A DNA stretch of 64,000 nt from an uncultured Trueperaceae bacterium (lineage in GTDB: Bacteria; Deinococcota; Deinococci; Deinococcales; Trueperaceae). The first letter of the stretch is position 1. Every line of letters starts with the position of its first letter. The notes under the pieces were generated by a model. The model did no database searches, had not been told where the DNA came from, and saw nothing but the letters and a program-made list of their open reading frames with translations. This document shows, piece after piece, positions 39,892 to 53,437 of the stretch. Both the position numbers and the translations under genes were made by a program. The stretch spans positions 64,001 to 128,000 of the forward strand of contig CAVSGP010000009.1 of assembly GCA_963727505.1 (NCBI GenBank), in the 5' to 3' direction.

Positions 39892-41499
39892 TCAGGCGGG
39901 GGCGGGTGCGACCGCGAGTACGTCCGGGTCGTTCATCGCCCAGGCCGGGTAGGGCTCGTGCCGCAGGAAGCGAGCGGCGTAGAGCGCGGCCAGCTTCGCG
40001 TAGCGCCCGCTCCGCCCTGCATCGAGGGCGTACAGGAACGCCACCTGGGCGACGTCCGCCAGGCGTGCCAGCAGGTCCTTGCCGATCCACTGTGCCTGCA
40101 GCGCGTCGAGGCCCGTGAGCGATGCCAGGGCGTCGTCGAGAACCTGCGTGGCGTGGTGCGCTTCGGGCGTCGCCGCGGCGCCTAGGAGCCCGCGCATGGC
40201 GTCGGCGAAGGGGAGATGGGCGCCCTTCTTGTCCATCACCTCGAGCAGGTCGAGGGCCTGGATGTTGCTCGGCCCCTCCCAGATGGGCGTGATCAGGGCC
40301 TCGCGGTGCCAGCGCGCCACGGCGTACTCCTCCAGGAAGCCGAGCCCGCCGAACAGCTCCATGGCGAGCCGCGTCACCTCGGCGGCGTGATCGGCGGTGC
40401 GGTTCTTCGCCAGGTGTCCGAGCAGGCGCGCGTAGTGGTAGTCGCCCGAGTACGGCGGGCGTTCGTGCCAGGCGCGATCGAAGGCGTCGACGGCCTGGAA
40501 CGCCAGAGCAAGGCCCCCCGCCTGGCGAACCGCGATATCGACGAGGTCGCGCCGGACGAGGGGGTGCTCGAGCAGGGGCCGGCCGAACGCGCGGCGCCTG
40601 CGCACTCGCTCCTCGACCTCCTGCGCCGCCTTGCGCGCGATACCCATGCTGGCGACGGAGTTGGCGAGACGTGAGACGGTGAGCGTCTCGAGCGTGTAGT
40701 AGATGCCCTCGTCGGCACGCCCGATCCGCTCCGCACGGCTGCCTTCGAGCTCGACCTCGCCGGAGGGAACGGCCCGCGTGGCGCTCTTGTCCTTGAGCCG
40801 CCGGACGCGGAAGTTGAGGGCGCCCGCCGCGTCGAGCCGGGGAACCAGGAACAGCGCAAGCCCCTTGGGGCCGGCCGGTGCCCCCTCCGGCCGCGCGGTG
40901 ACGACGGCGGCGTCGGTCAGGCCCGCGCCGCTCGCGAAGTACTTGTCCCCACCCTCGAGACGCCAGCCGTCACCGTCGCGGCGGGCCACCGTGCGGTTGG
41001 AACCGAGGTCGCTGCCGCCCTGGTTCTCCGTCATCCAGGTGGCGCCGTAGAGGTCCAGGCCGAGCAGCGCCTGCTTCAGGTCCTCATGCTCGGGCGCGTA
41101 CTTGTGGAGCGCGTACGCCGTCTGCAGCGTGATGGTGAGGATGCAATACAGGCCGGGGTCGGCCAGCAGGTAGCCCAACGCGAAGTGGTGGTGCCAGCTC
41201 CCGCCCTCGAACGGCGGCCGCATCATGGGCGCCAGCTTCGGCATCAACGCGCGCTGCGCGGGGCTGAGGCGGACGCGGTCGATGCGGTTGCCGTCGAGGT
41301 CGTGACTGACCAGCACCGGCTGCGCATCGTGATCGACGTGGTAGGCGACCTCGTAGGCCTCGCCGTTGGCGAGGGCACCGAAGGCGGCGAGCGCCTCCTC
41401 GTGCTCGGCCATCGCCGGCCAGACGCCGCGCAAGACCGCCTTCAGGTCGGGGTCGCGGAGCCAGGCGTTGGTGCCGTACGCATAGGACTGGAACTCCAT
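39892..41499 (-). CDS. Acyl-CoA dehydrogenase (AidB-like)
   Basis: WMTENQGGSDL, RRLKDK, FGGLGFLEE and PIWEGPSN; AGGAGG RBS and TACAAT upstream. Confidence 0.9.
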   Translation of the reverse strand: MEFQSYAYGTNAWLRDPDLKAVLRGVWPAMAEHEEALAAFGALANGEAYEVAYHVDHDAQPVLVSHDLDGNRIDRVRLSPAQRALMPKLAPMMRPPFEGGSWHHHFALGYLLADPGLYCILTITLQTAYALHKYAPEHEDLKQALLGLDLYGATWMTENQGGSDLGSNRTVARRDGDGWRLEGGDKYFASGAGLTDAAVVTARPEGAPAGPKGLALFLVPRLDAAGALNFRVRRLKDKSATRAVPSGEVELEGSRAERIGRADEGIYYTLETLTVSRLANSVASMGIARKAAQEVEERVRRRRAFGRPLLEHPLVRRDLVDIAVRQAGGLALAFQAVDAFDRAWHERPPYSGDYHYARLLGHLAKNRTADHAAEVTRLAMELFGGLGFLEEYAVARWHREALITPIWEGPSNIQALDLLEVMDKKGAHLPFADAMRGLLGAAATPEAHHATQVLDDALASLTGLDALQAQWIGKDLLARLADVAQVAFLYALDAGRSGRYAKLAALYAARFLRHEPYPAWAMNDPDVLAVAPAPA

Positions 41500-41687
41500 G
41501 GTTGCCTCCTGCCGTGGCTGGATTGTAGAGCGGCAAACCGTGATGGTGCCCGGTTGTCCCGTAGCGCGCTGCGTCGGGCCCGGCAGGGGAGCGTGCGGTC
41601 GGCGCCGGGACCACGCCGGGACCACGCCGGGACGAACGCCCCTCGTTGCCTCGCCCACCCGAAGGGCGAGCCGTAGGGGGACGGATC

Positions 41688-42464
41688 TCAGCCCAACCAG
41701 GGCACGGGGACCTGCAGGTGGTAGAACAGCGCAATCGCGATTCCCACGGAGAAGAGCTGGTGCAACGGGACCAGCACGCCGGGCCGTTCGGACGACGCGT
41801 TGATCGCCTGGAACGTCAGGAAGCCGAGACCGACCTGCGCCAGGAGGAACAGCAGGGCCACGTTGTTGGTCGGCGTCTCGTAGGCGAGGGTCAGAAGGAA
41901 CAGCAGCACGGCCAGGCCGTGCACCACCCATACCCACTGCGCCAACGAACGCGGCCAGGTGAACACGCCGATCGCCTTGCCGAACCCCCGTTGCCCCGTC
42001 ACCATGCCACCCAAGAAGATCACCAGCAGGAACGAGTGGAGGGGAATCCCCGTCTCGAGGTAGAACCCGAGCCCCGGGCCGTGGGTCAGCATCAGGAGGT
42101 AGGTGAACAGCGTCGAGTAGGCGAGCAGACCGTGGAGACCCTGCAGCGCCGAGGGCGCCTTGCCGGCCAGGACGAAGAGCGTCGCCATGCCGAGCAGCGC
42201 GGTGAACACGATGAGCCCGAGGCCGGTCCAGGCGAGGCCATCGGAACGAAGCGCCAGGATGGCCAGCGCGTTGAGGCCGAGCAGGGTCGCGATGATCCGA
42301 TGCCAGGCCTCGGGATCGCCCCCGAACGCCAGAGCCACGATGTTGCGCGTGTAGGGCCAACGCGTGCCGAGCGACAGACCGTAGCCGTAGCCTTCGACCA
42401 TGCCACCGACCACGATCAAGCCGGCGGCCAGGACCACCTGGACGAGGATGAGCCCGTATGCCAT
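41688..42464 (-). CDS. Short heme A synthase (CtaA/COX15)-like membrane protein
   Basis: About 8 TM; DPEAWHR (ExxHR) plus three more TM His (GLHG, VVHG, PLHQ); GYGLSLGTRWP without the Cys pair. Confidence 0.7.
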   Translation of the reverse strand: MAYGLILVQVVLAAGLIVVGGMVEGYGYGLSLGTRWPYTRNIVALAFGGDPEAWHRIIATLLGLNALAILALRSDGLAWTGLGLIVFTALLGMATLFVLAGKAPSALQGLHGLLAYSTLFTYLLMLTHGPGLGFYLETGIPLHSFLLVIFLGGMVTGQRGFGKAIGVFTWPRSLAQWVWVVHGLAVLLFLLTLAYETPTNNVALLFLLAQVGLGFLTFQAINASSERPGVLVPLHQLFSVGIAIALFYHLQVPVPWLG

Positions 42465-42824: not shown

Positions 42825-43033
42825 CGAACTCGCCTCCACATGACGAGGCTAGGGGGCGGCCGTGAGTTCGCCATGACATGACGACGAGAGCGTCCTCATG
42901 CCGTCCATGGCGGCCCGTCCGGGCGTTCGCGGTTCGTTCACACAGCCTCCCCCCAACCTTCCCACGGCAGGTCCTACGCTGCAGGAGACATCGGGGCCCT
43001 CGAACCGAACCCCGGCCCCCGAAGGAGACCACC

Positions 43034-43618
43034 ATGACCCGGAACCGCACTCTCGCCCTCAGCCTCGTGATCGCCGGGGCGCTCGTCGCCTCGATGGCGC
43101 TTGCCTACGGTCCCCGAAACGCTCAGCGCTCCGCCGGCCCGCAGGGCCCCGCGAACTTCGACCGCGGCCCGGTGGCCGGAATACAGGCTGCGACCCACGC
43201 CGATCTCGCCGCCTTGCTCGGGATCAGCGAGGACGCCCTGGTCGCCGAGCGCCAGAGCGGGAAAACGGTCGCCGATCTGCTCGTCGAGCACGGCTTGACC
43301 ACGGCCGACGCCAGCGCAACGCTCGTGGCCCAGCGTGATTCGCGCATCGACGCAGCGGTTGCCGCGGGCACGGTCGATGCCCAACGCGCCGACGTGATGA
43401 AGAGCCGCACGCCCGACGCCATCGCAGCCATGCTCACGCGTGAGCTCGGCCCGCGCGCCGGCAACATGTTCGGGCCCTCGACCGGGAACCGGAACGCGAC
43501 CCCCATGAGCACACGGGCGCAGCGTGGCGGAGGCCAGGGCTGGCAGACGGGGAACCGTGGCGGTCCCGGTATGGGCATGCACGAGCCCGGCTACCGCTTC
43601 AGCCTTCCCAACAACTGA
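43034..43618 (+). CDS. Secreted helical protein of unknown function
   Basis: Signal peptide ending ALA; LAALLGISEDAL..ERQSGKTVADL motif; AAGGAG RBS. Confidence 0.8.
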   Translation: MTRNRTLALSLVIAGALVASMALAYGPRNAQRSAGPQGPANFDRGPVAGIQAATHADLAALLGISEDALVAERQSGKTVADLLVEHGLTTADASATLVAQRDSRIDAAVAAGTVDAQRADVMKSRTPDAIAAMLTRELGPRAGNMFGPSTGNRNATPMSTRAQRGGGQGWQTGNRGGPGMGMHEPGYRFSLPNN

Positions 43619-43683: not shown

Positions 43684-44478
43684 TCATGGGACCGAAGAAG
43701 AGTCGCCGCCGATGCGCAGGTCAGGTAGGTCGGCGGCCAGCCGACGCGCGTAGGCGGGCTCGTGGTCCCAGCACGAGGCAACCTCCCAGGCGCGTAACGC
43801 CGCTTCCGCGGCCTCCCAGCCCGGGCGCGGGCGGCCGCCGAGCGCGATCGACAACGCCACCTCATCGAGGATCGACGCGTCCACGCGGGCCTCGTCCCAA
43901 TCGACCAGTGCCACGTTGCCTTCCGGCGTCACCAGGATGTTCTCGCGCTGCAGGTCCCCGTGGACGACCGAGCGCGGAGCGCCGGCGAGACGCGCCCAGG
44001 CGGCCCTGCACGCGTCGGCCACGTCGTGGGGCATGCCGTCGAGCTCGATGTCGCCGGCGCTACGACGTTCGACCATGGCGGCGCTCGATGCGAAGCCGGG
44101 GCGCTGGGTCGTCCCTCGGGTGGCGTCGTGGAAACCGCGCAGGAGAGTCCGCAGGCGGGCGAGGCTGCGGGCGTCGGCGGGACGGCCGTCGATGAAGCGT
44201 TCCAAGGTGATTCCGTCCTCGACCAGGTACCCGGCCCGGCTGCGCAGCGGTTCCGGGGTCACCAGCCCGATCTCGCGAGCCTGGACGTGCACCGCCTCGA
44301 GCCAGCTCAGCGCCTCGGCGCTGCGTCGCGTCCCTTTGGCGACGAGCGTCTCGCCGGCACGTTCGACCAGCAGGACGGGGTTGCGGTTCCCTCCCGGCAG
44401 CTCGCGCACGACGCGGAGCTCGCCCCAGGCCGTCGTGCGCTCGAGTCGTTCCTGCAAGCTGCGCGCCGAGAACGCCAC
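43684..44478 (-). CDS. APH/choline-kinase-like phosphotransferase (start uncertain)
   Basis: LPGGNRN, VVHGDLQRENIL and LVDWDE. Confidence 0.85.
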   Translation of the reverse strand: MAFSARSLQERLERTTAWGELRVVRELPGGNRNPVLLVERAGETLVAKGTRRSAEALSWLEAVHVQAREIGLVTPEPLRSRAGYLVEDGITLERFIDGRPADARSLARLRTLLRGFHDATRGTTQRPGFASSAAMVERRSAGDIELDGMPHDVADACRAAWARLAGAPRSVVHGDLQRENILVTPEGNVALVDWDEARVDASILDEVALSIALGGRPRPGWEAAEAALRAWEVASCWDHEPAYARRLAADLPDLRIGGDSSSVP

Positions 44479-44531
44479 GCGTGCCCGGCGTTCCTTCGGT
44501 TCGTCGCCCCCCACCACGTTCCTCGGTCGTC

Positions 44532-45332
44532 CTACTCGTTGGGCGGCGAGCCCGGTGGCACGGGGATTCGGCGCCGATGTTCGATGCGCATCGACGTGCC
44601 GGCGAACGCGGCCGCGTCGGCGTCGAGCGGGATGCTGGTTGACGGCGTGCCGATGCCGAACCCCTGAAGGTGGGTGACGCCCAGGTCCTTGAGTTGCTGA
44701 CGGACGGTCGGATCCTCGACGCCCTCCGCCACCACGATGCCGAAGCGGTCGAGAGCGTCCGCCACCAGATCGATGGCGCGCTGCTGGTAGGTGCCTCCGA
44801 GGAGTGCGGGCAGCAGGCTTCGATCGAGCTTGACGCCGTCGATCGGTGCGCCCTTCCGGAAGCGGTGGTCGAGGTCGTCGAAGGTCACGTCGTCGAGAAG
44901 GACGATCGCGCAATGGTCGCGCACGCCCTCGAGCCCCTGCCAGTAGGCGTCGAGATTGCGGATCTGCTGCTCGGTGAGCTCGACGACGAGGCGCTGCTGC
45001 AGCTCGGGTTTCAGGCTGCGGAGGGCGTGCACGGCAGCTGGTTGCGTCACCTGGGCGGGACTCAGGTTGATGCTCAGGCGCGCCCCGGGCGAAGCGAGCA
45101 GCGCTTCCGCGGCGCGCGCCACGGTGAAGCGCGTGAAGGCCTCGCTGCGGGTGGGGGCAAGCCAGTAGGGCAGGACGTCCAAGGGTCCACGTACCGTGCC
45201 GTCCGGAAGCCGCCAGCGCACCAGCGCCTCGTACCAATGCACGATGCCGGCCGCTGCCGATTCGATCGGCTGGAACTGATAGTGGAGGTCCTGCAGGCGG
45301 GGGTAGGGAACGTGGATGGGGTCGTACTTCAT
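44532..45332 (-). CDS. Stand-alone EAL-domain protein
   Basis: FQPI, YEALVRW, SINLS, VELTE, LDD, VKLDRS, VAEGVE and LQGF; loop 6 is DDVTFD instead of DDFGTG. Confidence 0.88.
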   Translation of the reverse strand: MKYDPIHVPYPRLQDLHYQFQPIESAAAGIVHWYEALVRWRLPDGTVRGPLDVLPYWLAPTRSEAFTRFTVARAAEALLASPGARLSINLSPAQVTQPAAVHALRSLKPELQQRLVVELTEQQIRNLDAYWQGLEGVRDHCAIVLLDDVTFDDLDHRFRKGAPIDGVKLDRSLLPALLGGTYQQRAIDLVADALDRFGIVVAEGVEDPTVRQQLKDLGVTHLQGFGIGTPSTSIPLDADAAAFAGTSMRIEHRRRIPVPPGSPPNE

Positions 45333-45434
45333 GACGGTGGCGATCCCGCCTCCCCCAGGGGGCGACGCGCCCCGCGAGCGAAGGCCGCAGGGCGCGTAAC
45401 AGGTCGATGGGGCGCTACGCCCCGTGCCGCACGC

Positions 45435-45578
45435 TCAGCCCGCGTCGTAGCTTCCGGACTGACTCCCCGAGTCGGCCAGCGTCATGCTCTGGTGAGCGAT
45501 GGTCACGCCCCCGGCGGCCGAGCCGAGCAGGACGAGTGCGAGAATAGTGCTGCGGATGATCTTCTTGAGCGTGGGCAC
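45435..45578 (-). CDS. 47-aa secreted peptide precursor MPTLKKIIRSTILALVLLGSAAGGVTIAHQSMTLADSGSQSGSYDAG (candidate signalling peptide)
   Basis: Translated by hand; perfect AAGGAGG RBS 5 nt before GTG; basic N-region, hydrophobic H-region and short polar tail; own -10 (TAGGCT 45653-45658). Confidence 0.8.
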   Translation of the reverse strand: MPTLKKIIRSTILALVLLGSAAGGVTIAHQSMTLADSGSQSGSYDAG

Positions 45579-45652
45579 CGGGTCCTCCTTGGGTTCCTTC
45601 TTGCTGGTTTCCCCTTTGGGTCTCCTCTGTCTCTGACCCTCTTGCTGCTTGG

Positions 45653-45737
45653 AGCCTACGGGTGGGGGCGCTTCAACCCCGCTTCAACCACGCGGGCTCG
45701 GGCTGAAGCGGGGGTGGAGCGCCCCCCGGCCTACCGT
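45653..45737. promoter_or_regulatory. Mirror-symmetric divergent promoter with 11-bp-period direct repeats
   Basis: Minus strand: GGTTGAAGC-gg-GGTTGAAGC-N11-TAGGCT. Plus strand: GGCTGAAGC-gg-GGGTGGAGC-N11-TACCGT. Confidence 0.75.
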
Positions 45738-45761
45738 GCGGGTCGAGAAGAGGAGGCAGGC

Positions 45762-45953
45762 ATGACGAGAGAAGAAGCCCTCCAACGGCTGGATGGAACG
45801 TGGTCGTTCGATGTCGTCGGGGACCAGGTTCTGATTCGAGAGTTGGGTCTGCTGTCGGCCGTCGACGCGATCCGTCGCGAGCGGTCGGCGGCGGGCCAGC
45901 GCCCGTTCGTCTCCACGGCGTCGTTCGAGGGGGCGGCCGCCTCCGGCGATTGA
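45762..45953 (+). CDS. Small hypothetical protein (63 aa)
   Basis: AGGAGG RBS; MTREEALQRLDGTWSFDVVGDQVLIRELGLL...; lies behind the plus-strand -10. Confidence 0.6.
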   Translation: MTREEALQRLDGTWSFDVVGDQVLIRELGLLSAVDAIRRERSAAGQRPFVSTASFEGAAASGD

Positions 45954-46023
45954 GCGCGACCGTCGACCGCAGCTCCAGGCGTGGTCGCGCGGGAGCTCGC
46001 GCCTATGCCGGTATGCTCATGAT

Positions 46024-48495
46024 GTGTGGCTGAAGCGTCAGCTCGATCGCATCGTCGCAAGCGAGCGGCCGGTGGCGTTGCTCGGCGGCGAGCCGTACGG
46101 CGTTCCCTTCCTCATCGACGCGCTCCGTGAGCGGGAACGGCTAGCCTGGGTCACGTTGTCCCGGCGCGCGCGCGACGACGTGGTGGCACAGGGCAACGCC
46201 CTGGCGAGCGCGTTGAATCAGCAGCTCGGCGAGTCGCTCCTGCCGCACGCCTTGCCCTACCGGGCACACCTGCAGTCGTTGCGCCAGTACCGCCACGATC
46301 TTCAACCGCTGTGGATCGCCGTGTCCGGCGCCGATGTCGCGCCCGCCTTCGCGGGTGAGCTGGTCCAGCTCGCCGACTTCGGCTACCGCGTGCTGCTGGG
46401 GTTCGAGACGGACGTGCCGCCGGAGATGGACGGGCTCGATCGGTGCCTGGTGCTGGGCGTGCCCGAACTCACCGTGACCCGCGAGGACGCAGCGATGATC
46501 GCTCCCGGTGGCCTCTCTGCCGGTGAGCTCGACGCCGTTCAACGCGAGACCGGAGGGCGGTTCACGGACCTCCTGACGGTCACCCACGAACGGGCCCAGC
46601 TCCCACGCTTCCCGATCCCGACGCCGCTCGGGCCGGTGCTGCCGCAGCGCCGAGCCGAAGCCGTCGACGTTCCACTGGCGGTGCTGGGGCTCCAGCGCGA
46701 GGGTCGCCCGGTCGACGCTCTCGAGCTGGCCGTGCGGGCCGCGCCCGAGATGGTGGAGGACCTGCTGCGCACGGCGGGCCCCGCCTACCAGGACGAGGGC
46801 GCGTTGCCCCGACTGCACCTGCTCCTGTCGAGCCTGCCGCAGCCCTACCGGTCTCTCGAGCGCGTGCTGGAGTGGCGTTTCCTGGCCTCCTTCGCGACCA
46901 ACGAGTGGCGCGCCCTGGTCGAGGAGGTCGACGCCCACCTGGAGGCGTTCACGGCGCCCGAGCTTCGTGCACGGCGCGCGGGCACGCTGGCGCGCGAGGC
47001 CGGGTTCCCGCTGGCGGAGGCTGCCATGCGGGCGCGGCGCACGCCGCTGACGCTCTGGCAGTACGGGCGCATGCATCCCGACGCGCAACGGGCGGTGGAG
47101 GTGCTCAAGGAGAGCGTGCGCCTGGCGGAACAGGCCGGCACGCCGTACGAGGTGGCACGCAGCGCCGGCGTCCTGGCCGACCGCCTGGTGCACCTGGGGC
47201 AGTTCCAACGGGGCCGCTCCTGGGCGGAGTACGCCCTGCAGGTGTTCGACCAGAACGGGCTGCGAGACGGCGCACGCCGGCTGACGCTGTTCAACAACCT
47301 GGCCGTGGCCCGCATCCTCAGCGGGGACCTGGCAGGGCTGCGGCGTGGGCTCGAGGACGGGCAGGCCGCCATCGAAGGGAGCCTTCCCGAGCTCGCCGCG
47401 ACCTTCCGCGGCACGCTCGCCTGGTTCGAGCAGGCTAGCGGTCGACCGGAAGAGGCGCTCGAGCTGATGCGGGCCACTTTCGAGGGCAGCCCACGCCGGT
47501 TCCGGACGCGCTTCGGCTACCAGTTCGTGCGCTGCCTCAACGAGTTCGGACGCTACGAGGAGGCGGCCCGGGTCGCGGACGTCGCCGCGGAGCTCAGCGG
47601 CGACGCCTCGGCGCATGCCCGTCAGCTCGGGGCGCTTGCCCAGGGCATGGTGGGCGCGGTCAAGGGCGACGCGACCGCGGTCGACGACCTGCTCGGTGTC
47701 GTGATCGACGGTTCCCTCCCCGCCGAGCAGCGCCTGACGGCGGCGCTCCACGGCCTGCTGGTCGACCCCGCGGGCTGGCACCGCTACCCACCCGACGTCG
47801 TCGAAGTGCTCCGGGGCCTCGACGGCGGCGCGCTGCGCGTGCTCAGCGGGCCCGCGTCGGTCTTCCAGGGCGTCTGGGACACCCTCGTACCGGTGCGCGC
47901 GGAGCTGCGGCTGGAGTTCCTCGGGCGCGTCTCCTGCCGCCTGGGCGGCAAGGAGATCGGGCTGGCGCCGCGCATGGCGGAGACCGCGCTGGCGCTGGCG
48001 CTCCACCCCGACGGGATGACGCGCGAGGAGCTCAACGCCTTCCTGGCGCCCGACGGCACCGCCGGGCTGTCACCGAGCGGTATGCGGGCCACGCTCACCC
48101 GCTTGCGGGCCCTGCTACCGGTCAGCGACGCGCCCTACCGGTTCGCCGTGGCGTACACGGCCGACATCCTGCAGGCGCGGCGTCACCTTCTGGAGAAGCG
48201 CGTTCGCGAGGCTGTCACGCTGCTGCGTGGGCCGCTCCTTCCCGAGAGCGAGGCGCTCGGCGTCGAGGAGCAGCGCTGGATCCTGGAGGAGGAGCTCCGG
48301 CAGGCCGTCCTCGAGGCTGCGGATCCGGACGCCCTCTTCGACCTCGCCGACCGGCTTCAGGACGACGTGCAGCTGTGGGAAGCCGCGGTCGGCGCGCTCC
48401 CGCCGGGCGATCCTCGCAGGGCCCTGGCGCGCGCGCGTCTGCACCGCGGCCAGAGCGAGCAGGTTCCGCCGGCGCGAGGCCCGGCCCAGGCCTGA
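46024..48495 (+). CDS. Large regulator: degenerate MalT-like NTPase N-terminus, TPR-like middle, C-terminal OmpR/SARP-type wHTH with BTAD-like tail
   Basis: VALLGGEPYGVP...LAWVTLS (Walker A lost); helical repeats such as LFNNLAVARILSGD; LRLEFLG...LALHPDGMTREEL...MRATLTRLR; TATGCT 6 nt before GTG. Confidence 0.75.
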   Translation: MWLKRQLDRIVASERPVALLGGEPYGVPFLIDALRERERLAWVTLSRRARDDVVAQGNALASALNQQLGESLLPHALPYRAHLQSLRQYRHDLQPLWIAVSGADVAPAFAGELVQLADFGYRVLLGFETDVPPEMDGLDRCLVLGVPELTVTREDAAMIAPGGLSAGELDAVQRETGGRFTDLLTVTHERAQLPRFPIPTPLGPVLPQRRAEAVDVPLAVLGLQREGRPVDALELAVRAAPEMVEDLLRTAGPAYQDEGALPRLHLLLSSLPQPYRSLERVLEWRFLASFATNEWRALVEEVDAHLEAFTAPELRARRAGTLAREAGFPLAEAAMRARRTPLTLWQYGRMHPDAQRAVEVLKESVRLAEQAGTPYEVARSAGVLADRLVHLGQFQRGRSWAEYALQVFDQNGLRDGARRLTLFNNLAVARILSGDLAGLRRGLEDGQAAIEGSLPELAATFRGTLAWFEQASGRPEEALELMRATFEGSPRRFRTRFGYQFVRCLNEFGRYEEAARVADVAAELSGDASAHARQLGALAQGMVGAVKGDATAVDDLLGVVIDGSLPAEQRLTAALHGLLVDPAGWHRYPPDVVEVLRGLDGGALRVLSGPASVFQGVWDTLVPVRAELRLEFLGRVSCRLGGKEIGLAPRMAETALALALHPDGMTREELNAFLAPDGTAGLSPSGMRATLTRLRALLPVSDAPYRFAVAYTADILQARRHLLEKRVREAVTLLRGPLLPESEALGVEEQRWILEEELRQAVLEAADPDALFDLADRLQDDVQLWEAAVGALPPGDPRRALARARLHRGQSEQVPPARGPAQA

Positions 48496-48640: not shown

Positions 48641-50158
48641 ATGAGAAAGTCGCTCTTACTCCTCTTAGCCGGGGTCGCGCTGTCGTTCGGCGCTGCGTTC
48701 GCCGCCAGCGGCACGGTCAGCGTTGCGATGTCCGGGAACGCCATCACACTCAACCCCGGGGACACCAACGGCAACCTCGATTTCTCCATCCAGCGCCCCA
48801 TCTACGAAGGCCTGGTCGGCTTCGACAAGGACGGCAAGCTCGTCCCCGAGCTGGCTACCTCCTGGACGGCCAGCTCGGACGCGACGGTGTTCACGTTCGA
48901 TCTGCGCAAGGGTGTGACCTTCCAGGACGGCACGCCGTTCAACGCCGAGGCCGTAAAGACCTACTTCGACTGGGTCATCGATCCCGCCAACCATTTCGTG
49001 CGCGAGAGCCTGTACAACGTCATCAAGTCGATCGACGTGGTGTCGGAGTACCAGGTCAAGTTCACGCTCTCCAAGCCCTTCGGCGCGATGCTCTTCACAT
49101 TCGCGCACCCTGCCGGGCGCATCGTCAGTCCTGCTGCCATCAAGAAGTACGGCAAGGACGTGGCGAAGCACCCCGTAGGTACCGGTCCCTTCGAGTTCGT
49201 GAGCTGGACGCCGGGCCAGAAGGTGGTCCTGAAGGCCAACCCCAGCTACTGGGGTGACGCGCCGCAGGTCGCCAACCTGCAGTTCCTGTTCGTGCCCAAC
49301 GCCGCGACGCGCGTGGCTATGCTGCAGAGCGGCGAGGCGCAGTTCATCGAGGACCTCCCGCCGCAGCTCGTCGACCCCATCAAGGCCGACAGCAACCTGA
49401 CGGTCAGCGCCCAGCCGAGCATCTACGTGCGCTACATGGCGATGAACACGCAGGCCAAGCCGTTCAACGATCAGCGCGTGCGTCAGGCGCTGAACTACGC
49501 GGTGGACAAGAAGACCATCGTCGACGTCATCACCAAGGGCTACGGCACCGCGTTGACGGCTCCGATCGCCGAGCAGGTGACGGGCTACGCCAAGCAGACG
49601 CCGTACGCCTACAATCCCGAGAAGGCCAAGCAGCTGCTGGCCGAGGCCGGCTATCCCAACGGCTTCACCTTCACCATCGACTCGCTCAACAGCACCGGCT
49701 ACCAGCAGATCGATCAGGTGCTGCAGCAGATGTTCGCGAAGGTGGGCGTGACCGCCAAGATCAACCCGATGGAGAGCGGCACGTTCTCCAGCACGGTGTT
49801 CGCGCCGTTCGACAAGACCACCCTCCAGGCAGTCGTCATCGGCTGGTCCCCGTCGACCGGTGACGCCGACTGGGGCCTGCGCCCGCTGTTCGACAAGGCC
49901 TCCTGGCCGCCCGATCTGTACAACCTGGCGTTCTACGACAACCCCAACGTCAACAAGCTGATCGCCGACGGCCTCAGCACGGCCAATCAGGACATCCGCA
50001 ACCAGGCCTATGCCTCCGCCGAGAAGACCATCTGGAACGATGCTCCCTGGGTCTTCCTGTACAGCCCCTACAACATCGCGGGTATCTCCGCGAAGTTGAA
50101 CGGCGTCTTCTACATGCCCGACGGCACGGTGGACGCCCGGGCGGCCAGCCTGCAGTAA
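48641..50158 (+). CDS. Peptide/glutathione ABC substrate-binding protein (GsiB/DppA-like)
   Basis: Sec signal; LRKGVTFQDGTPFNA, PVGTGPF and GWSPSTGDADW; GGAGG RBS. Confidence 0.93.
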   Translation: MRKSLLLLLAGVALSFGAAFAASGTVSVAMSGNAITLNPGDTNGNLDFSIQRPIYEGLVGFDKDGKLVPELATSWTASSDATVFTFDLRKGVTFQDGTPFNAEAVKTYFDWVIDPANHFVRESLYNVIKSIDVVSEYQVKFTLSKPFGAMLFTFAHPAGRIVSPAAIKKYGKDVAKHPVGTGPFEFVSWTPGQKVVLKANPSYWGDAPQVANLQFLFVPNAATRVAMLQSGEAQFIEDLPPQLVDPIKADSNLTVSAQPSIYVRYMAMNTQAKPFNDQRVRQALNYAVDKKTIVDVITKGYGTALTAPIAEQVTGYAKQTPYAYNPEKAKQLLAEAGYPNGFTFTIDSLNSTGYQQIDQVLQQMFAKVGVTAKINPMESGTFSSTVFAPFDKTTLQAVVIGWSPSTGDADWGLRPLFDKASWPPDLYNLAFYDNPNVNKLIADGLSTANQDIRNQAYASAEKTIWNDAPWVFLYSPYNIAGISAKLNGVFYMPDGTVDARAASLQ

Positions 50159-50174
50159 GTTCCTGACGTGCGGA

Positions 50175-50202
50175 GAGCCGGCCCGCTACGGCTGGCCGGC
50201 TC
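50175..50202 (+). terminator. Intercistronic hairpin after the SBP gene
   Basis: GAGCCGGCC-N10-GGCCGGCTC. Confidence 0.5.
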
Positions 50203-50224
50203 CCGCTCGTTGACCTTATTCATC

Positions 50225-51145
50225 ATGTGGCGCTATCTGATCCGTCGACTGCTCGAGCTCATCCCGACGCTGATCGGTGTCTCGATCGCGGTCTTTCTCT
50301 TCATCCATGCCATCCCAGGTGACCCTGCCCGCCTGGCGGCTGGACAGGATGCCTCGCTCGCCGACGTCGAGGCGATGCGCGTGCGCCTGGGACTCAACCA
50401 CAGCCTGCCGGTCCAGTACCTTTACTTCCTCCGGAATGCCGCCCACGGCGATTTCGGGCTCTCCTTTCGCCAGCAGGTGCCGGTGCTTCAGGTGGTGCGC
50501 GAGCACTTCATGCCCACCCTTCTGCTTTCGACGAGCGCCATCGTCATCGCGTTCGTCTTCGGCTTGTTGTCGGGGGTGATGGCGGCGACGCGCCGCAACT
50601 CCTGGTTCGACCTGGTGATCACGGGGCTCTCCGCCACCGGCATCAGCATCCCATCGTTCTTCCTCGGGATCCTGCTCATCTATCTGTTCGCCGTCGATCT
50701 TCACTGGTTCCCGGTCACCGGGAGCGTGAGCCTGCGCGGGCTCGTGCTGCCCTCGGTGAGCCTTGCTCTGGCGCCGCTCGCCACCATCGCGCGCTTCGTG
50801 CGCTCGAGCTTCCTGGAGGTCTCGGGCGAGGACTTCGTGCGCACGGCCAGTGCCAAGGGGCTCGGCTATGCCGCCGTCACCTACAAGCACGCGCTGCGTA
50901 ACGCCCTGATCCCCGTGGTGACCATGACCGGGCTCCAGTTCGGCTTCCTGCTCGGCGGGGCGGTCGTCATCGAGACGGTGTTCAACTTCACGGGCCTGGG
51001 CTGGCTGCTGATCCAGTCGATCGGCTTTCGCGACTACGCCGTGCTCCAGGTCCTGCTGCTGCTCTTCGCGTTGGAGTTCATGCTGGTGAACCTGCTGGTT
51101 GACGTCACCTATGGCGCACTGGACCCGAGGATCCGCTATGACTAG
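50225..51145 (+). CDS. Peptide ABC permease (GsiC/DppB-like)
   Basis: IPGDPA, FVRTASAKG and KHALRNALIP. Confidence 0.93.
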   Translation: MWRYLIRRLLELIPTLIGVSIAVFLFIHAIPGDPARLAAGQDASLADVEAMRVRLGLNHSLPVQYLYFLRNAAHGDFGLSFRQQVPVLQVVREHFMPTLLLSTSAIVIAFVFGLLSGVMAATRRNSWFDLVITGLSATGISIPSFFLGILLIYLFAVDLHWFPVTGSVSLRGLVLPSVSLALAPLATIARFVRSSFLEVSGEDFVRTASAKGLGYAAVTYKHALRNALIPVVTMTGLQFGFLLGGAVVIETVFNFTGLGWLLIQSIGFRDYAVLQVLLLLFALEFMLVNLLVDVTYGALDPRIRYD

Positions 51146-52007
51146 CGCAGCGTCCGCCGCTCCCGCCCGCGAGAGCCGGGGCCGCGACCTGTGGCGGCGC
51201 TTCCGGCGCCATCGCAGCGGCATGGCGGGCCTCGCGCTGACGGCCGTGTTCGTGCTGATGGCGATCTTCGGCCACCTTCTGGCGCCCTACGACCCGGCCC
51301 AGGCCGACTACCTGCACCTCAACGCTCCGCTCTCGGCTACGCACTGGCTGGGCACCGACAACTACGGCCGCGATATCTTCAGCCGGACGCTGGTCGGGGC
51401 ACGCTACTCGCTCAGCATCGGCGTCCTGGCGACGGCTTTCAGCGCGCTGATCGGCAGCCTGTGGGGGCTGCTCGCCGGCTACCTGAGTGGCTGGTTCGAT
51501 ACCCTCTCGGGGCGTGTCATCGACATCATGCTGGCCTTCCCGGGCCTGCTCCTGGCGATCGGCATCATCGCGATCGCCGGGCCCGGTTTTCGCAACGTCA
51601 TCCTCGCCACGACCATCTTCGGCATCCCGATCTTCGCGCGGCTGGTCCGCGGGTCGGCGCTGGCGCTCAAGGAGCGCGCCTACGTGGAAGCGAGCCAGGC
51701 GCTGGCGGCCAGCTCCGCGCGCATCATGTTCCGGCACGTGCTGCCCAACATCTTGGCACCGATCCTGGTGTACATCACGTTGCGCGTCGGCACGGTGATC
51801 CTCATCGCGGCGTCGCTGTCGTTCCTGGGTCTCGGGGTCCAACCGCCGACGCCCGAGTGGGGCGCCATGCTCAGCGAAGCTCAGCTCTACCTGGCCATCG
51901 ATCCCATCATGGCGATCGCGCCCGGCGTGGCGATCAGTCTCGCCGTCCTGGGCTTCAATCTGCTGGGCGACGGTCTGCGCGACGTGCTCGATCCGCGCAT
52001 CCGCTGA
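51138..52007 (+). CDS. Peptide ABC permease (GsiD/DppC-like)
   Basis: HWLGTDNYGRD, RHVLPN and LSFLGLGVQPPTPEWG. Confidence 0.93.
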   Translation: MTSAASAAPARESRGRDLWRRFRRHRSGMAGLALTAVFVLMAIFGHLLAPYDPAQADYLHLNAPLSATHWLGTDNYGRDIFSRTLVGARYSLSIGVLATAFSALIGSLWGLLAGYLSGWFDTLSGRVIDIMLAFPGLLLAIGIIAIAGPGFRNVILATTIFGIPIFARLVRGSALALKERAYVEASQALAASSARIMFRHVLPNILAPILVYITLRVGTVILIAASLSFLGLGVQPPTPEWGAMLSEAQLYLAIDPIMAIAPGVAISLAVLGFNLLGDGLRDVLDPRIR

Positions 52008-52055: not shown

Positions 52056-53282
52056 TCATCCGACGGTCTGTTCATCGGAGCCCGGAGCAGGCTCCAGCCG
52101 CCGCTGCGACCGTTGTCGTCGGAACGGAACGGGCACCTGCATCGCCGGCAAGTCGGGTTGCGGCACCGTCATCGGGACGGGTTCCGACTCCCAGCCCGCG
52201 CCGGGCTCATGGCGACGGAAACGGAAGACGGCGAGGCTCGCGACGGTGACCAGCGCCAGCAACTCCAGGGCGATCACGGTGAGCCGCGAGGCGCCGCCGG
52301 AGGGTGCGGCATCGGGGGTGCTCGGGTCGGGGGTGCTCGGGTCGGGGGCGGCCGGCCCCGGGGCTCCCGCTCCGGGGGCCTCGGCTCCCTCGGCGCTCGT
52401 GCCGGGAGTGCCGCCGGCTGCAGGTCCGGAGATCGTGGCCACGGCGCGGGTGCCGGCGTCGGAGAGCACGCCGGGGATCCTCGGCGCCAGGGCGGAGACG
52501 GCGAGGGTGCCCGACGCGGTTCCCAGGCGAGGATTGAAGGGTTCCAGCGTGCCGATCGTAGCGCCGTCGGGTGCGATGTAGCTGGGATCGGCGCCGGCTC
52601 GCAAGAGCGCGTCGACGATGGCGGGCGTGCCGTCGCGTGCGGCGAACAGCAGAGGCGTCCAGCCGCGCTGCGTGATGTGGTTCGGGTCGGCGCCGCCGCG
52701 CAGCAGCGCTCGCACGGCGTCCAGATTGCGGCCGTCGATGGCCATGACGAGGGGGGTGCGGCTACGGGCGTCGACCGGATCGGCGCCGTGGCAGGCGATG
52801 GCGGTGGCCATGGCCGCGTAGGCAGCGGGAGCGAGCGAGGTCAGGCGCGCGTCGTCGAACAGGGCTTCGGTCCTGAGGCATGCCACGTTGAAGGCGCTCT
52901 GCCGGTCGAAGGCGAAGCTCAGCGTCGCGGCGATGGCGCCCGGTGACGCGCGGCTCCTGTCGAGCCGCAGCTGATACGAAGTGTTGCTCACGACGAACGC
53001 GAGGGAAGACGGCGCTCCTTGCCGGTCGATCGAGCCGGCGCCAGGCAAGGCGCGTACGAAGGCCAGCACATCGGCGTAGGCGCTGCGCTTGCTCGAAGTC
53101 CGCGGGATCAACACGCAGGTGCGCGCCACCTGGTGGAACGGGCAATCCAGATAGGTGGCCGTCGGAGCGAACTGCGCTTCCAGCGCAGGCGCGACCCCGG
53201 CGGCATCGAGAGCGTGGGCCAGCGGTGCGAGCGCCAGGAGCATGGTGAAGAGTGCACGATGTGCGTTTCGTAGATGATGCAT
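52056..53282 (-). CDS. Exported ankyrin-repeat protein with Pro/Ala linker and C-terminal TM anchor
   Basis: Signal peptide; RTPLVMA...LLRGGADPN and GWTPLLFAA...LLRAGADPS; late hydrophobic helix followed by RFRR. Confidence 0.78.
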   Translation of the reverse strand: MHHLRNAHRALFTMLLALAPLAHALDAAGVAPALEAQFAPTATYLDCPFHQVARTCVLIPRTSSKRSAYADVLAFVRALPGAGSIDRQGAPSSLAFVVSNTSYQLRLDRSRASPGAIAATLSFAFDRQSAFNVACLRTEALFDDARLTSLAPAAYAAMATAIACHGADPVDARSRTPLVMAIDGRNLDAVRALLRGGADPNHITQRGWTPLLFAARDGTPAIVDALLRAGADPSYIAPDGATIGTLEPFNPRLGTASGTLAVSALAPRIPGVLSDAGTRAVATISGPAAGGTPGTSAEGAEAPGAGAPGPAAPDPSTPDPSTPDAAPSGGASRLTVIALELLALVTVASLAVFRFRRHEPGAGWESEPVPMTVPQPDLPAMQVPVPFRRQRSQRRLEPAPGSDEQTVG

Positions 53283-53437
53283 GAAGGGCCTGCCCACAAC
53301 GAGGTTAGGCCGTCCAGGCCGCGCTGGTTGTGAGTACCTTCCCTTCTTCCGCTCGGTTGACCCTCGATACCCAGTGGGGCTATGGTTGCGTGCATACCGA
53401 GTTGCGCTACGGTCTTGCAATCTCGAGGAGGTAGGGC

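Follow-up and report, generated by a model that had tools for sequence, protein, structure and literature searches.

Gene content of the locus and conservation of pep

We analyzed a window of 64,000 nucleotides (nt) from an uncultured Trueperaceae bacterium (assembly GCA_963727505.1, contig CAVSGP010000009.1, positions 64,001 to 128,000 of the forward strand; positions below are those of the window) and focused on a small gene, here called pep, which had been predicted from the sequence to encode a secreted propeptide. An open reading frame (ORF) of 47 codons is present exactly where the original prediction had put it, and translates as (V→M)PTLKKIIRSTILALVLLGSAAGGVTIAHQSMTLADSGSQSGSYDAG-stop. 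That prediction had mentioned neither the GTG start codon nor the ribosome-binding site upstream of it. On the same strand pep is followed by a gene for an EAL domain protein, and the pair diverges from orf63 and the gene for an 823-amino acid (aa) regulator, termed REG823. The module thus reads pep→EAL, diverging from orf63→regulator.

45435..45578, minus strand: pep, a 47-aa precursor ORF (GTG start, TGA stop) with homologues, profile matches and a ratio of non-synonymous to synonymous substitution rates (dN/dS) below 1
45584..45590, minus strand: perfect Shine-Dalgarno sequence AAGGAGG of pep, separated from the GTG by 5 nt (AAGGAGG-ACCCG-GTG on the minus strand)
44532..45332, minus strand: stand-alone EAL domain protein, a putative cyclic di-GMP (c-di-GMP) phosphodiesterase, 102 nt downstream of pep (Pfam EAL, 2.8e-34)
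45762..45953, plus strand: orf63, a conserved 63-aa cytoplasmic protein with GAGGAGG upstream and a homologue between pep and regulator in nearly all loci
46024..48495, plus strand: REG823, with an N-terminal alpha/beta STAND-like domain, TPR-like repeats (about residues 216-621) and a C-terminal SARP domain

Homologues of pep were recovered from all nine other genomes of the genus (49-98% identity), and the same search gave weaker matches in three further genera. A profile of 13 sequences (E<=0.01) placed the family in 50 of 128 genomes and 11 of 36 genera of the taxonomic family. Starting instead from the regulator gene, synteny led to the genera g7, g10 and g16 and to four more pep-bearing genomes that the profile had missed. 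The pep region consists of N in three loci (L081 in G111, L123 in G109 and L124 in G113), and the precursors there could not be read. In the homologues of all 13 first loci we found a GGAGG-type site 5-9 nt upstream, the same frame and the same stop position; all three features also recurred at every unmasked further locus. The original prediction had tied the reality of the gene to codon-level conservation in relatives, and such conservation is indeed present: dN/dS (Nei-Gojobori) was below 1 in 15 of 15 pairs computed, and the closest pair, G000 and G004, differed by five synonymous and no non-synonymous changes.

The product had no Pfam or NCBIfam match. Its 37 matches in public protein collections are unnamed, labelled "hypothetical protein" or, once, "uncharacterized membrane protein"; they stem from metagenome-assembled genomes (MAGs) of Trueperaceae/Deinococcales, and none of them carries a Pfam domain. 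A search of its own assembly (3.26 Mb, 15 contigs) returned the gene itself and a chance match at E 0.65, and thus no paralogue. A plus-strand ORF that overlaps pep (44670..45953) runs antisense through EAL and pep and then in frame into orf63, and was discarded as a high-GC artefact.

The arrangement of the four genes is conserved along with pep. EAL and regulator genes were found on both sides of pep in 11 of the 12 first loci, the contig of the twelfth ending first, and in 34 of 37 further loci, the other three being cut by contig ends. The same arrangement holds in the more distant loci that were found by synteny. In the window 445 nt separate pep from the regulator start, and the divergent orientation with orf63 in between was kept in all loci whose contig reached that far; by the same measure EAL was always syntenic with pep. 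The N-terminal 40 residues of orf63 are conserved in nearly all loci, and the protein gave no match in Pfam or NCBIfam and no usable one in the ESM Atlas. All 47 named loci found with the regulator belong to Trueperaceae/Deinococcales MAGs, and all carriers found are uncultured.

The precursor and its tandem cores

The predicted pep product divides into two parts (here and below, an arrow within a sequence marks a cut).

45474..45578, minus strand: signal/pro region, residues 1-35, with n-region KK..R, h-region ILALVLLGSAAGGVTIA and candidate cleavage sites VTIA↓H and TLA↓D, read from the sequence
45438..45473, minus strand: core, the putative mature peptide DSGSQSGSYDAG, residues 36-47, which matches the tandem unit of multi-core relatives; D45 and G47 are invariant

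A basic n-region (KK..R) is followed by an uncharged stretch of 19 residues (S10-A28), by HQSMTLA and by the tail DSGSQSGSYDAG. This layout is general, as each of the 49 precursors scored has a K or R between residues 2 and 13 and 15 or more uncharged residues in a row. A lipoprotein was ruled out by the lack of a Cys, and a Tat signal by the lack of an RR motif.

The unit that would be released can be recognized from precursors in which one signal peptide is followed by two to four tandem copies of the tail, a layout seen in 8 of 59 precursors. In G101 QTSNQPGEYDVG occurs four times back to back, with a unit of exactly 12 aa and no spacer. The G104 precursor carries ADTSGQPNEYDVG four times with 8-aa spacers and that of G103 three copies; two copies each are present in G090, G096 and G110, and at least three in G111, where the sequence is partly masked. 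In G130 four copies of AGSGSVVIPDVG are separated by unrelated spacers. The identical cores of G130 differ pairwise at 3-8 of 36 nt and those of G101 at 1-4 of 36 nt, and all of these differences are synonymous. Since the core differences are all synonymous and the spacers unrelated, the unit of about 12 aa itself is under selection, and the spacers are not. Furthermore, every precursor stops exactly at the Gly of the core unit. The multi-core precursors hence define the mature peptide unusually cleanly, and do so without an experiment. They strongly support the earlier claim of an ORF that is mostly signal peptide and yields a short C-terminal peptide.

Directly before every internal copy stands a small residue, in most cases following two hydrophobic ones (..IIA↓D, ..QLA↓D, ..WLA↓G, ..VVG↓Q), and the tail in the window has the same context, TLA↓D. 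Given the distance of the internal copies from the signal peptide, signal peptidase alone would not suffice, and one further protease or more must take part. The sequences make release of the C-terminal 9-12 residues in the form of a small peptide very probable, and for the window a likely order of events would be cleavage at VTIA↓H by signal peptidase and subsequent trimming at TLA↓D. Altogether, we hold with high confidence that pep is a real gene for an exported precursor of a peptide of about 12 aa.

Alternatively, the pep product could stay in the membrane as an uncleaved single-pass microprotein (N-in, C-out) whose external tail or tails contact a partner in the envelope. The uncharged stretch S10-A28 would be long enough to span the membrane, and one public source does call a homologue a membrane protein. 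Against this stand up to four identical cores, freely diverging spacers and the A or G that follows a hydrophobic pair before each core; together these features have the look of repeated processing sites. The exact back-to-back 12-aa copies of G101 would be needless for a tethered ectodomain, and many residues in the latter half of the h-region are G, S or A, a composition known from signal peptides. We therefore consider a membrane microprotein improbable and retain the released peptide.

Among 35 distinct tails the consensus was [D/G/Q]-[S/T]-[S/G]-[G/N/S/H]-[Q/K]-[P/R/K]-G-[D/E]-[W/Y/I/L]-D-[A/V/P]-G, or in short [D/G/Q]-S/T-S/G-x-x-x-G-D/E-Φ-D-x-G. The D at -3 and the G at -1 from the C-terminus are invariant (35 of 35), and 29 of the 35 tails carry a net charge of -2 to -4, mostly -2. 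Tails in the genus of the window are shortened and have 9-12 residues. Among members of one genus the middle and Φ positions have diversified, as in the tails DSAGQKGEWDAG, DSGGQRGDWDPG and DSGGQRGEIDVG of genus g6. A conserved signal peptide with a variable tail, as originally predicted, was thus seen in orthologues; it was not seen in paralogues, and the ends of the tail (D-S-G ... Φ-D-x-G) turned out to be conserved.

Two MAGs each hold two complete modules with different tails: G050 (L050/L063) with DGGHQAGDYDPG and DSAGQKGEIDVG, and G065 (L060/L064) with DSGNQRGDLDAG and DSSNQRGELDAG. These pairs may represent two "pherotypes" per genome or bin contamination (4-5%).

A precursor of a lasso peptide or of another ribosomally synthesized and post-translationally modified peptide (RiPP) was considered because position 1 is G or D and position 8 is D or E in many tails. 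It was ruled out, as the module holds no maturation enzymes, the leader is a Sec signal and the cores have just 9-12 aa.

Regulator, divergent promoters and EAL gene

An AlphaFold (AF2) model of REG823, made from 28 orthologues, reached a predicted local distance difference test (pLDDT) score of 91.3 and a predicted TM-score (pTM) of 0.88. In the model an alpha/beta domain at the N-terminus is followed by helical repeats that span about 400 residues, and a winged helix with a helical bundle forms the C-terminus. The best full-length fold match in Foldseek was a STAND ATPase with TPRs (6mfv, E 7e-7); MalT (8bob_C) was among the matches listed, and no RRNPP chain was among them. Folded alone, the C-terminal 200 aa gave a pLDDT of 91.8, and their top Foldseek matches were the SARP domain of AfsR (8hvr_I, E 3e-6, TMq 0.68), 8k60 and EmbR (2fez), the AfsR matches coming from structures of transcription-initiation complexes. 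The SARP domain (residues ~625-813 of 823) consists of a winged helix-turn-helix (wHTH, ~628-713) and a helical BTAD-like part (714-813). An OmpR-type winged helix followed by a BTAD helical domain is thus found in REG823 by fold, and its support by sequence is marginal, with Pfam BTAD in 3 of 28 orthologues at E>=0.026. For REG823 itself Pfam and NCBIfam gave nothing beyond a sub-threshold TPR_19 match, and searches of PDB sequences with REG823 and with a C-terminal profile gave nothing meaningful. As modelled, REG823 carries a SARP fold. Because its fold-matched parts are STAND-like, TPR and C-terminal SARP, we describe it as an "inverted AfsR" with the domain order of MalT. The Walker A motif GxxxxGK[ST] is absent; the invariant N-terminal motif is G21-G22-E23-x-x-G26-x-P28, without K/S/T.

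The region between pep and orf63 (183 nt) is mirror-symmetric, and each of its halves holds a direct-repeat box and a -10-like hexamer. A further hexamer of this type precedes the regulator gene.

45669..45686, minus strand: direct-repeat box TGAAGCG-GGGT-TGAAGCG with an 11-bp period, facing pep; the sole exact match in the 3.26-Mb genome
45653..45658, minus strand: -10-like hexamer TAGGCT of the pep promoter, 10 nt after the pep-side box
45704..45721, plus strand: mirror box TGAAGCG-GGGG-TGGAGCG, facing orf63; the sole 1-mismatch match in the genome
45732..45737, plus strand: -10-like hexamer TACCGT of the orf63 promoter, 10 nt after the orf63-side box
46012..46017, plus strand: TATGCT, probable leaderless promoter of REG823, 6 nt before the GTG, without Shine-Dalgarno sequence

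With at most one mismatch, TGAAGCG-N4-TGAAGCG occurs at two sites of the genome, both of them here and as mirror images of each other; at two mismatches there were 31 genome matches, close to the 19 of a reversed-pattern control. Of 55 loci, 43 have an exact pep-side box and 48 have one within two mismatches; in 47 of these 48, TAnnnT stands exactly 10 nt behind it. On the orf63 side a box with at most two mismatches was found in 44 of 55 loci, and among the 47 loci with at most three mismatches TAnnnT follows at 10 nt (42 loci) or 9 nt (4). The heptamers of the pep box lie 11 bp apart, and TAnnnT begins 10 nt past the second heptamer, i.e., 7 nt past the 22-bp box. According to the published rule, SARP sites consist of direct repeats with an 11- or 22-bp spacing, and 8 bp separate the 3' repeat from the -10 element (PMC10936776). 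Judged by sequence, the module promoters have this layout (11-bp repeats, 3' repeat about 8 bp from the -10 element). Divergent clades use other heptamers in the same geometry, 9-10 nt before TAnnnT: TTACAGA/TTGCAGA in L032 (G019) and TCAACGG twice in L098 (G015). Co-evolution of the box with the DNA-binding domain would be expected to produce such a change of heptamer with a kept geometry. From the fold of REG823 and from the geometry, proximity and uniqueness of the boxes we infer that REG823 binds to them.

A promoter scan detected no consensus sigma-70 -35/-10 promoter in the region. Two "terminator-like" matches on the plus strand were disregarded, as they lie over the ribosome-binding site and start of pep on the opposite strand. 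Outside the window, at G000:C6:207341-207380, the heptamers TGAAGCG / TGAACCC / TGAAGCG / TGAACCC follow each other with an 11-nt period, found as three overlapping 2-mismatch matches of the box pattern. By its sequence this array could be another target of a SARP-type regulator.

All 28 regulator orthologues have TAnnnT 5-9 nt before the start codon, and none has GGAGG in the 18 nt upstream. This combination suggests that the regulator mRNA is leaderless and made from a promoter of its own, with a predicted start at 46024. At the two divergent promoters the predicted transcription starts lie about 7 nt past 45653 (minus strand) and about 7 nt past 45737 (plus strand). Leaderless mRNAs are common in Deinococcus. 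Two regulator paralogues were noted elsewhere. One, at G000:C4:555663-558120 outside the window, is in two pieces (profile positions 2-447 and 514-816) in separate frames and may be split or frameshifted; the other, in G006:C8 of the same genus, has no pep or EAL nearby.

In the 266-aa EAL protein the residues E35, R39, N89, E118, E121, D147, D148, K168, E203 and Q223 are invariant in 55 of 55 homologues; we take them to be those of the catalytic motifs. The loop after DD departs from DDFG(T/A)GYSS. As read from these residues, the active site is intact and the protein a predicted phosphodiesterase. The genome gave 21 GGDEF and 10 EAL matches, and by coordinates the EAL of the module is the sole one neither adjacent nor fused to GGDEF.

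Between pep and the EAL gene lies a spacer.

45333..45434, minus strand: pep-EAL spacer with two GC-rich hairpins, minimum free energy -58.7 kcal/mol

The hairpin sequences recur within the genus and are not conserved outside it. Together with the export signal, the invariant D-x-G-stop and a same-strand gene 102 nt downstream, the GC-rich hairpins could point to an arrest leader similar to SecM, MifM or VemP, in which the state of translation or export of pep would control EAL through the structured spacer. However, the structure is no better than that of shuffled sequences (z -1.29) and is not kept beyond the genus. Furthermore, only the last ~17 residues matter for arrest, which would leave tandem identical cores under purifying selection unexplained, and the downstream gene encodes an EAL protein and not a Sec or YidC component. 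We consider an arrest leader very improbable, and the pep product is treated below as the precursor of a released peptide.

A single metatranscriptome contained 5% of the sampled words. Its contigs are 85-95% alike and hence come from a relative; they run from the start of EAL across the spacer into the final 33 nt of pep, the rest of pep and the promoters being uncovered. Such contigs cannot show strand, ends or level, and we take the bridging of EAL, spacer and pep 3' end as a weak hint.

Proposed loop and comparison with known systems

In the signalling loop that we propose, pep would encode a Sec-type pre-pro-peptide whose signal peptide is removed after export, probably at VTIA↓H. A second cut after (L/I)A would free the acidic C-terminal peptide DSGSQSGSYDAG (9-12 aa across the family), which would accumulate outside the cell as a diffusible signal. 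On accumulation the peptide would be taken up, possibly by the Opp-type transporter that adjoins the module in this genus, and be sensed by the TPR region of the STAND/TPR/SARP regulator. The regulator, made constitutively from its leaderless promoter, would bind the two 22-bp direct-repeat boxes as a side-by-side dimer and activate both divergent promoters, neither of which has a -35 element. At the pep-EAL promoter this would result in positive feedback on the signal and in a stand-alone c-di-GMP phosphodiesterase as output, while the orf63 promoter would drive orf63, possibly a modulator, and transcription from it may run on into the regulator gene. As a net result c-di-GMP would drop, depending on population or confinement. 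We regard this full loop, an autoinduced peptide signal wired to c-di-GMP turnover, as evenly balanced between right and wrong.

The genes of the putative importer lie behind the regulator, outside the conserved core.

48641..52007, plus strand: SBP_bac_5 binding protein and two OppB/OppC-like permeases (Pfam), a possible peptide importer

A match to the binding protein was present beside the regulator in eight of nine fetched loci of the genus, the contig of the ninth (G008) ending before that point, and was absent from three loci of other genera, which were fetched with 10-kb flanks. No ABC (ATP-binding cassette) ATPase genes follow the permeases in the window.

Several points weigh against the loop. 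The importer genes adjoin the module in this genus only. The organisms probably have an outer envelope layer, which an acidic peptide of 1.2 kDa must cross to serve as a communal signal. We know of no peptide ligand for any SARP or AfsR-type TPR domain, and the regulator is not an RRNPP protein. Homologues of the regulator occur in other Deinococcota without pep or EAL nearby, so the regulator family as such needs no peptide, and a nucleotide switch as in MalT or AfsR is doubtful because the N-terminal domain lacks the Walker A lysine. The insignificance of the spacer structure against shuffles counts on this side too. The strongly conserved tail ends with moderate variability would also fit a fixed biochemical role such as metal/Ca2+ binding or being the substrate of a conserved enzyme. 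Finally, we infer rather than observe the cleavage sites, secretion, re-import, peptide-regulator binding, activation as opposed to repression, and EAL activity.

Some of these points lead to a different view of the peptide, namely that it has an extracellular or periplasmic job of its own (acidic Ca2+/metal binding, modification of matrix or surface, or action directed at competitors) and that REG823 controls it and EAL through some other cue sensed by the TPRs. The invariant D and G and the negative charge of most tails agree with such a job, as do the importer found in one genus only and the regulator homologues without pep; multi-core precursors are, in addition, typical for dosage amplification of bioactive peptides generally. 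On the other hand, the module shows no conserved genes for modification, immunity or dedicated export among the fetched loci, and the middle and Φ positions diversify within genera such as g6. Moreover, a secreted peptide gene, a TPR regulator and a second-messenger enzyme have been kept together over at least 14 genera, as the signalling loop predicts. An independent job of the peptide thus seems unlikely to us, though deserving of attention.

Two further analyses bear on the contact between peptide and regulator that the loop requires. A complex prediction with the G101 regulator (alignment A4) and residues 37-84 of the four-core precursor, run without controls, scored 0.26, where the mark is 0.32, and carries no weight on either side of the question of binding. 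The distances between tails correlated with those between regulators after controlling for EAL distance (partial Mantel: TPR 0.47, NOD 0.42, SARP 0.30), which is confounded by relatedness and which we read as a weak hint in favor of the loop.

The remaining neighbors were surveyed as well. An ankyrin-repeat protein of 454 aa (52056-53420, minus strand) directly follows the OppB/C-like permease genes. An APH-type phosphotransferase-like gene (43684-44550, minus strand; Pfam APH 2.8e-11) overlaps the end of the EAL gene and has a weak NCBIfam resemblance to a LanKC kinase region. Of the nine loci fetched from the genus, six carry this kinase-like gene, which was absent from the three loci of other genera and is therefore placed outside the module core. 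Further away lie a 195-aa protein with a signal-like N-terminus and no family match, conserved in most loci of the genus (43031-43618, plus strand), and an 822-aa protein (39892-42360, minus strand) whose C-terminal half is of the AidB/acyl-CoA dehydrogenase type and whose N-terminal ~290 aa have no Pfam match and are much less conserved.

Excerpts of two RRNPP surveys treat peptide signalling with cytoplasmic receptors as a hallmark of Bacillota (PMC10075063, PMC9765709). We found no published description of the module in the literature on RRNPP in Deinococcus, Truepera signalling peptides and Deinococcota peptide quorum sensing, a search that did not cover the supplements of RRNPP surveys. 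Likewise, no publication combining a SARP with a pheromone was found in the literature on STAND, SARP, TPR and secreted peptides. In these uncultured relatives of Deinococcus, the module has the appearance of a peptide signalling system that had not been described before. Tentatively, and with more doubt than belief, we propose it as the first genetically encoded peptide-pheromone system of Deinococcota, with the "inverted AfsR" as a new receptor class that binds a re-imported peptide of 9-12 aa, and with an autoinduced operon that includes a c-di-GMP phosphodiesterase. It would be a candidate for a self-contained four-gene system outside Bacillota, with a receptor architecture unrelated to RRNPP and with an operator and promoter design that can be read from the sequence. 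If this is true, the solution of a secreted propeptide plus a TPR regulator evolved independently, SARP/STAND regulators could be studied with a defined, synthesizable ligand, the sensor domain of a large SARP-type regulator would have its first ligand class, and a peptide signal would be tied directly to second-messenger control of biofilm and motility. As all carriers found are uncultured MAGs, the module is a ready target for heterologous reconstitution, and being directly testable in this way adds to its high interest.

The original prediction had likened pep to Phr, PapR and AimP precursors. With the RRNPP(A) systems of Bacillota (Rap-Phr, NprR-NprX, PlcR-PapR, AimR-AimP) the module shares a small gene for a predicted Sec-type propeptide whose active part would be C-terminal, the adjacency of this gene to that of its putative receptor, a cytoplasmic TPR transcription factor, the proposed logic of autoinduction and, in this genus, an Opp-type importer nearby. 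Even tandemly duplicated pheromones within propeptides are a known Rap-Phr feature, described for Phr3T and Phr105 in excerpts of one study (PMC11343458). In contrast, REG823 is a STAND-like/TPR/C-terminal SARP protein of 823 aa and not an HTH/TPR (helix-turn-helix/TPR) protein of 300-450 aa; the RRNPP fold combines an N-terminal HTH or 3-helix domain with a C-terminal TPR domain in about 280-460 aa. Also unlike RRNPP(A) systems, pep is divergent from the regulator gene with orf63 in between, the putative peptide of 9-12 aa is acidic with conserved ends, the output is an EAL phosphodiesterase in the same operon as the peptide, and the phylum is Deinococcota. Since receptor fold, size, domain set and phylum all differ, we do not count the module as an RRNPP member. 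The likeness therefore holds for the logic, a Sec-type propeptide beside a TPR transcription factor, and fails for family membership.

Multi-core precursors such as those of yeast alpha-factor, cyanobactins and Phr3T/Phr105 resemble those of the pep family in having near-identical cores in one precursor, purifying selection and variable linkers. They differ in that the module has no modifying or macrocyclizing enzyme and that the leader of pep is a Sec signal peptide.

The regulator has its own set of relatives. AfsR and the large actinomycete SARPs (SARP-NOD-TPR) contain the same types of domain, provide the best structural matches to the SARP domain (8hvr, 8k60, 2fez) and act at promoters with a 22-bp box of two 11-bp direct repeats just before the -10 element and no -35 element. 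Unlike in these proteins, where the SARP domain is N-terminal, the order in REG823 is inverted and the SARP domain C-terminal; REG823 lacks the Walker A lysine, and its sequence similarity is below the family thresholds. AfsR also differs from the module in being controlled by phosphorylation and in having no peptide partner gene. MalT-type STAND activators share with REG823 an N-terminal NOD-like domain, a helical-repeat sensor and a C-terminal DNA-binding domain, in line with the MalT chain among its fold matches. MalT itself is licensed to activate at arrays of repeated boxes once its sensor has bound an inducer. REG823 differs from this type in that its DNA-binding domain is a SARP and not a LuxR-type domain, its nucleotide-binding motif is degenerate and its proposed inducer is a genetically encoded peptide. 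Judged by its predicted structure, the regulator is closest in its parts to the AfsR-type large SARPs and in its layout to MalT.

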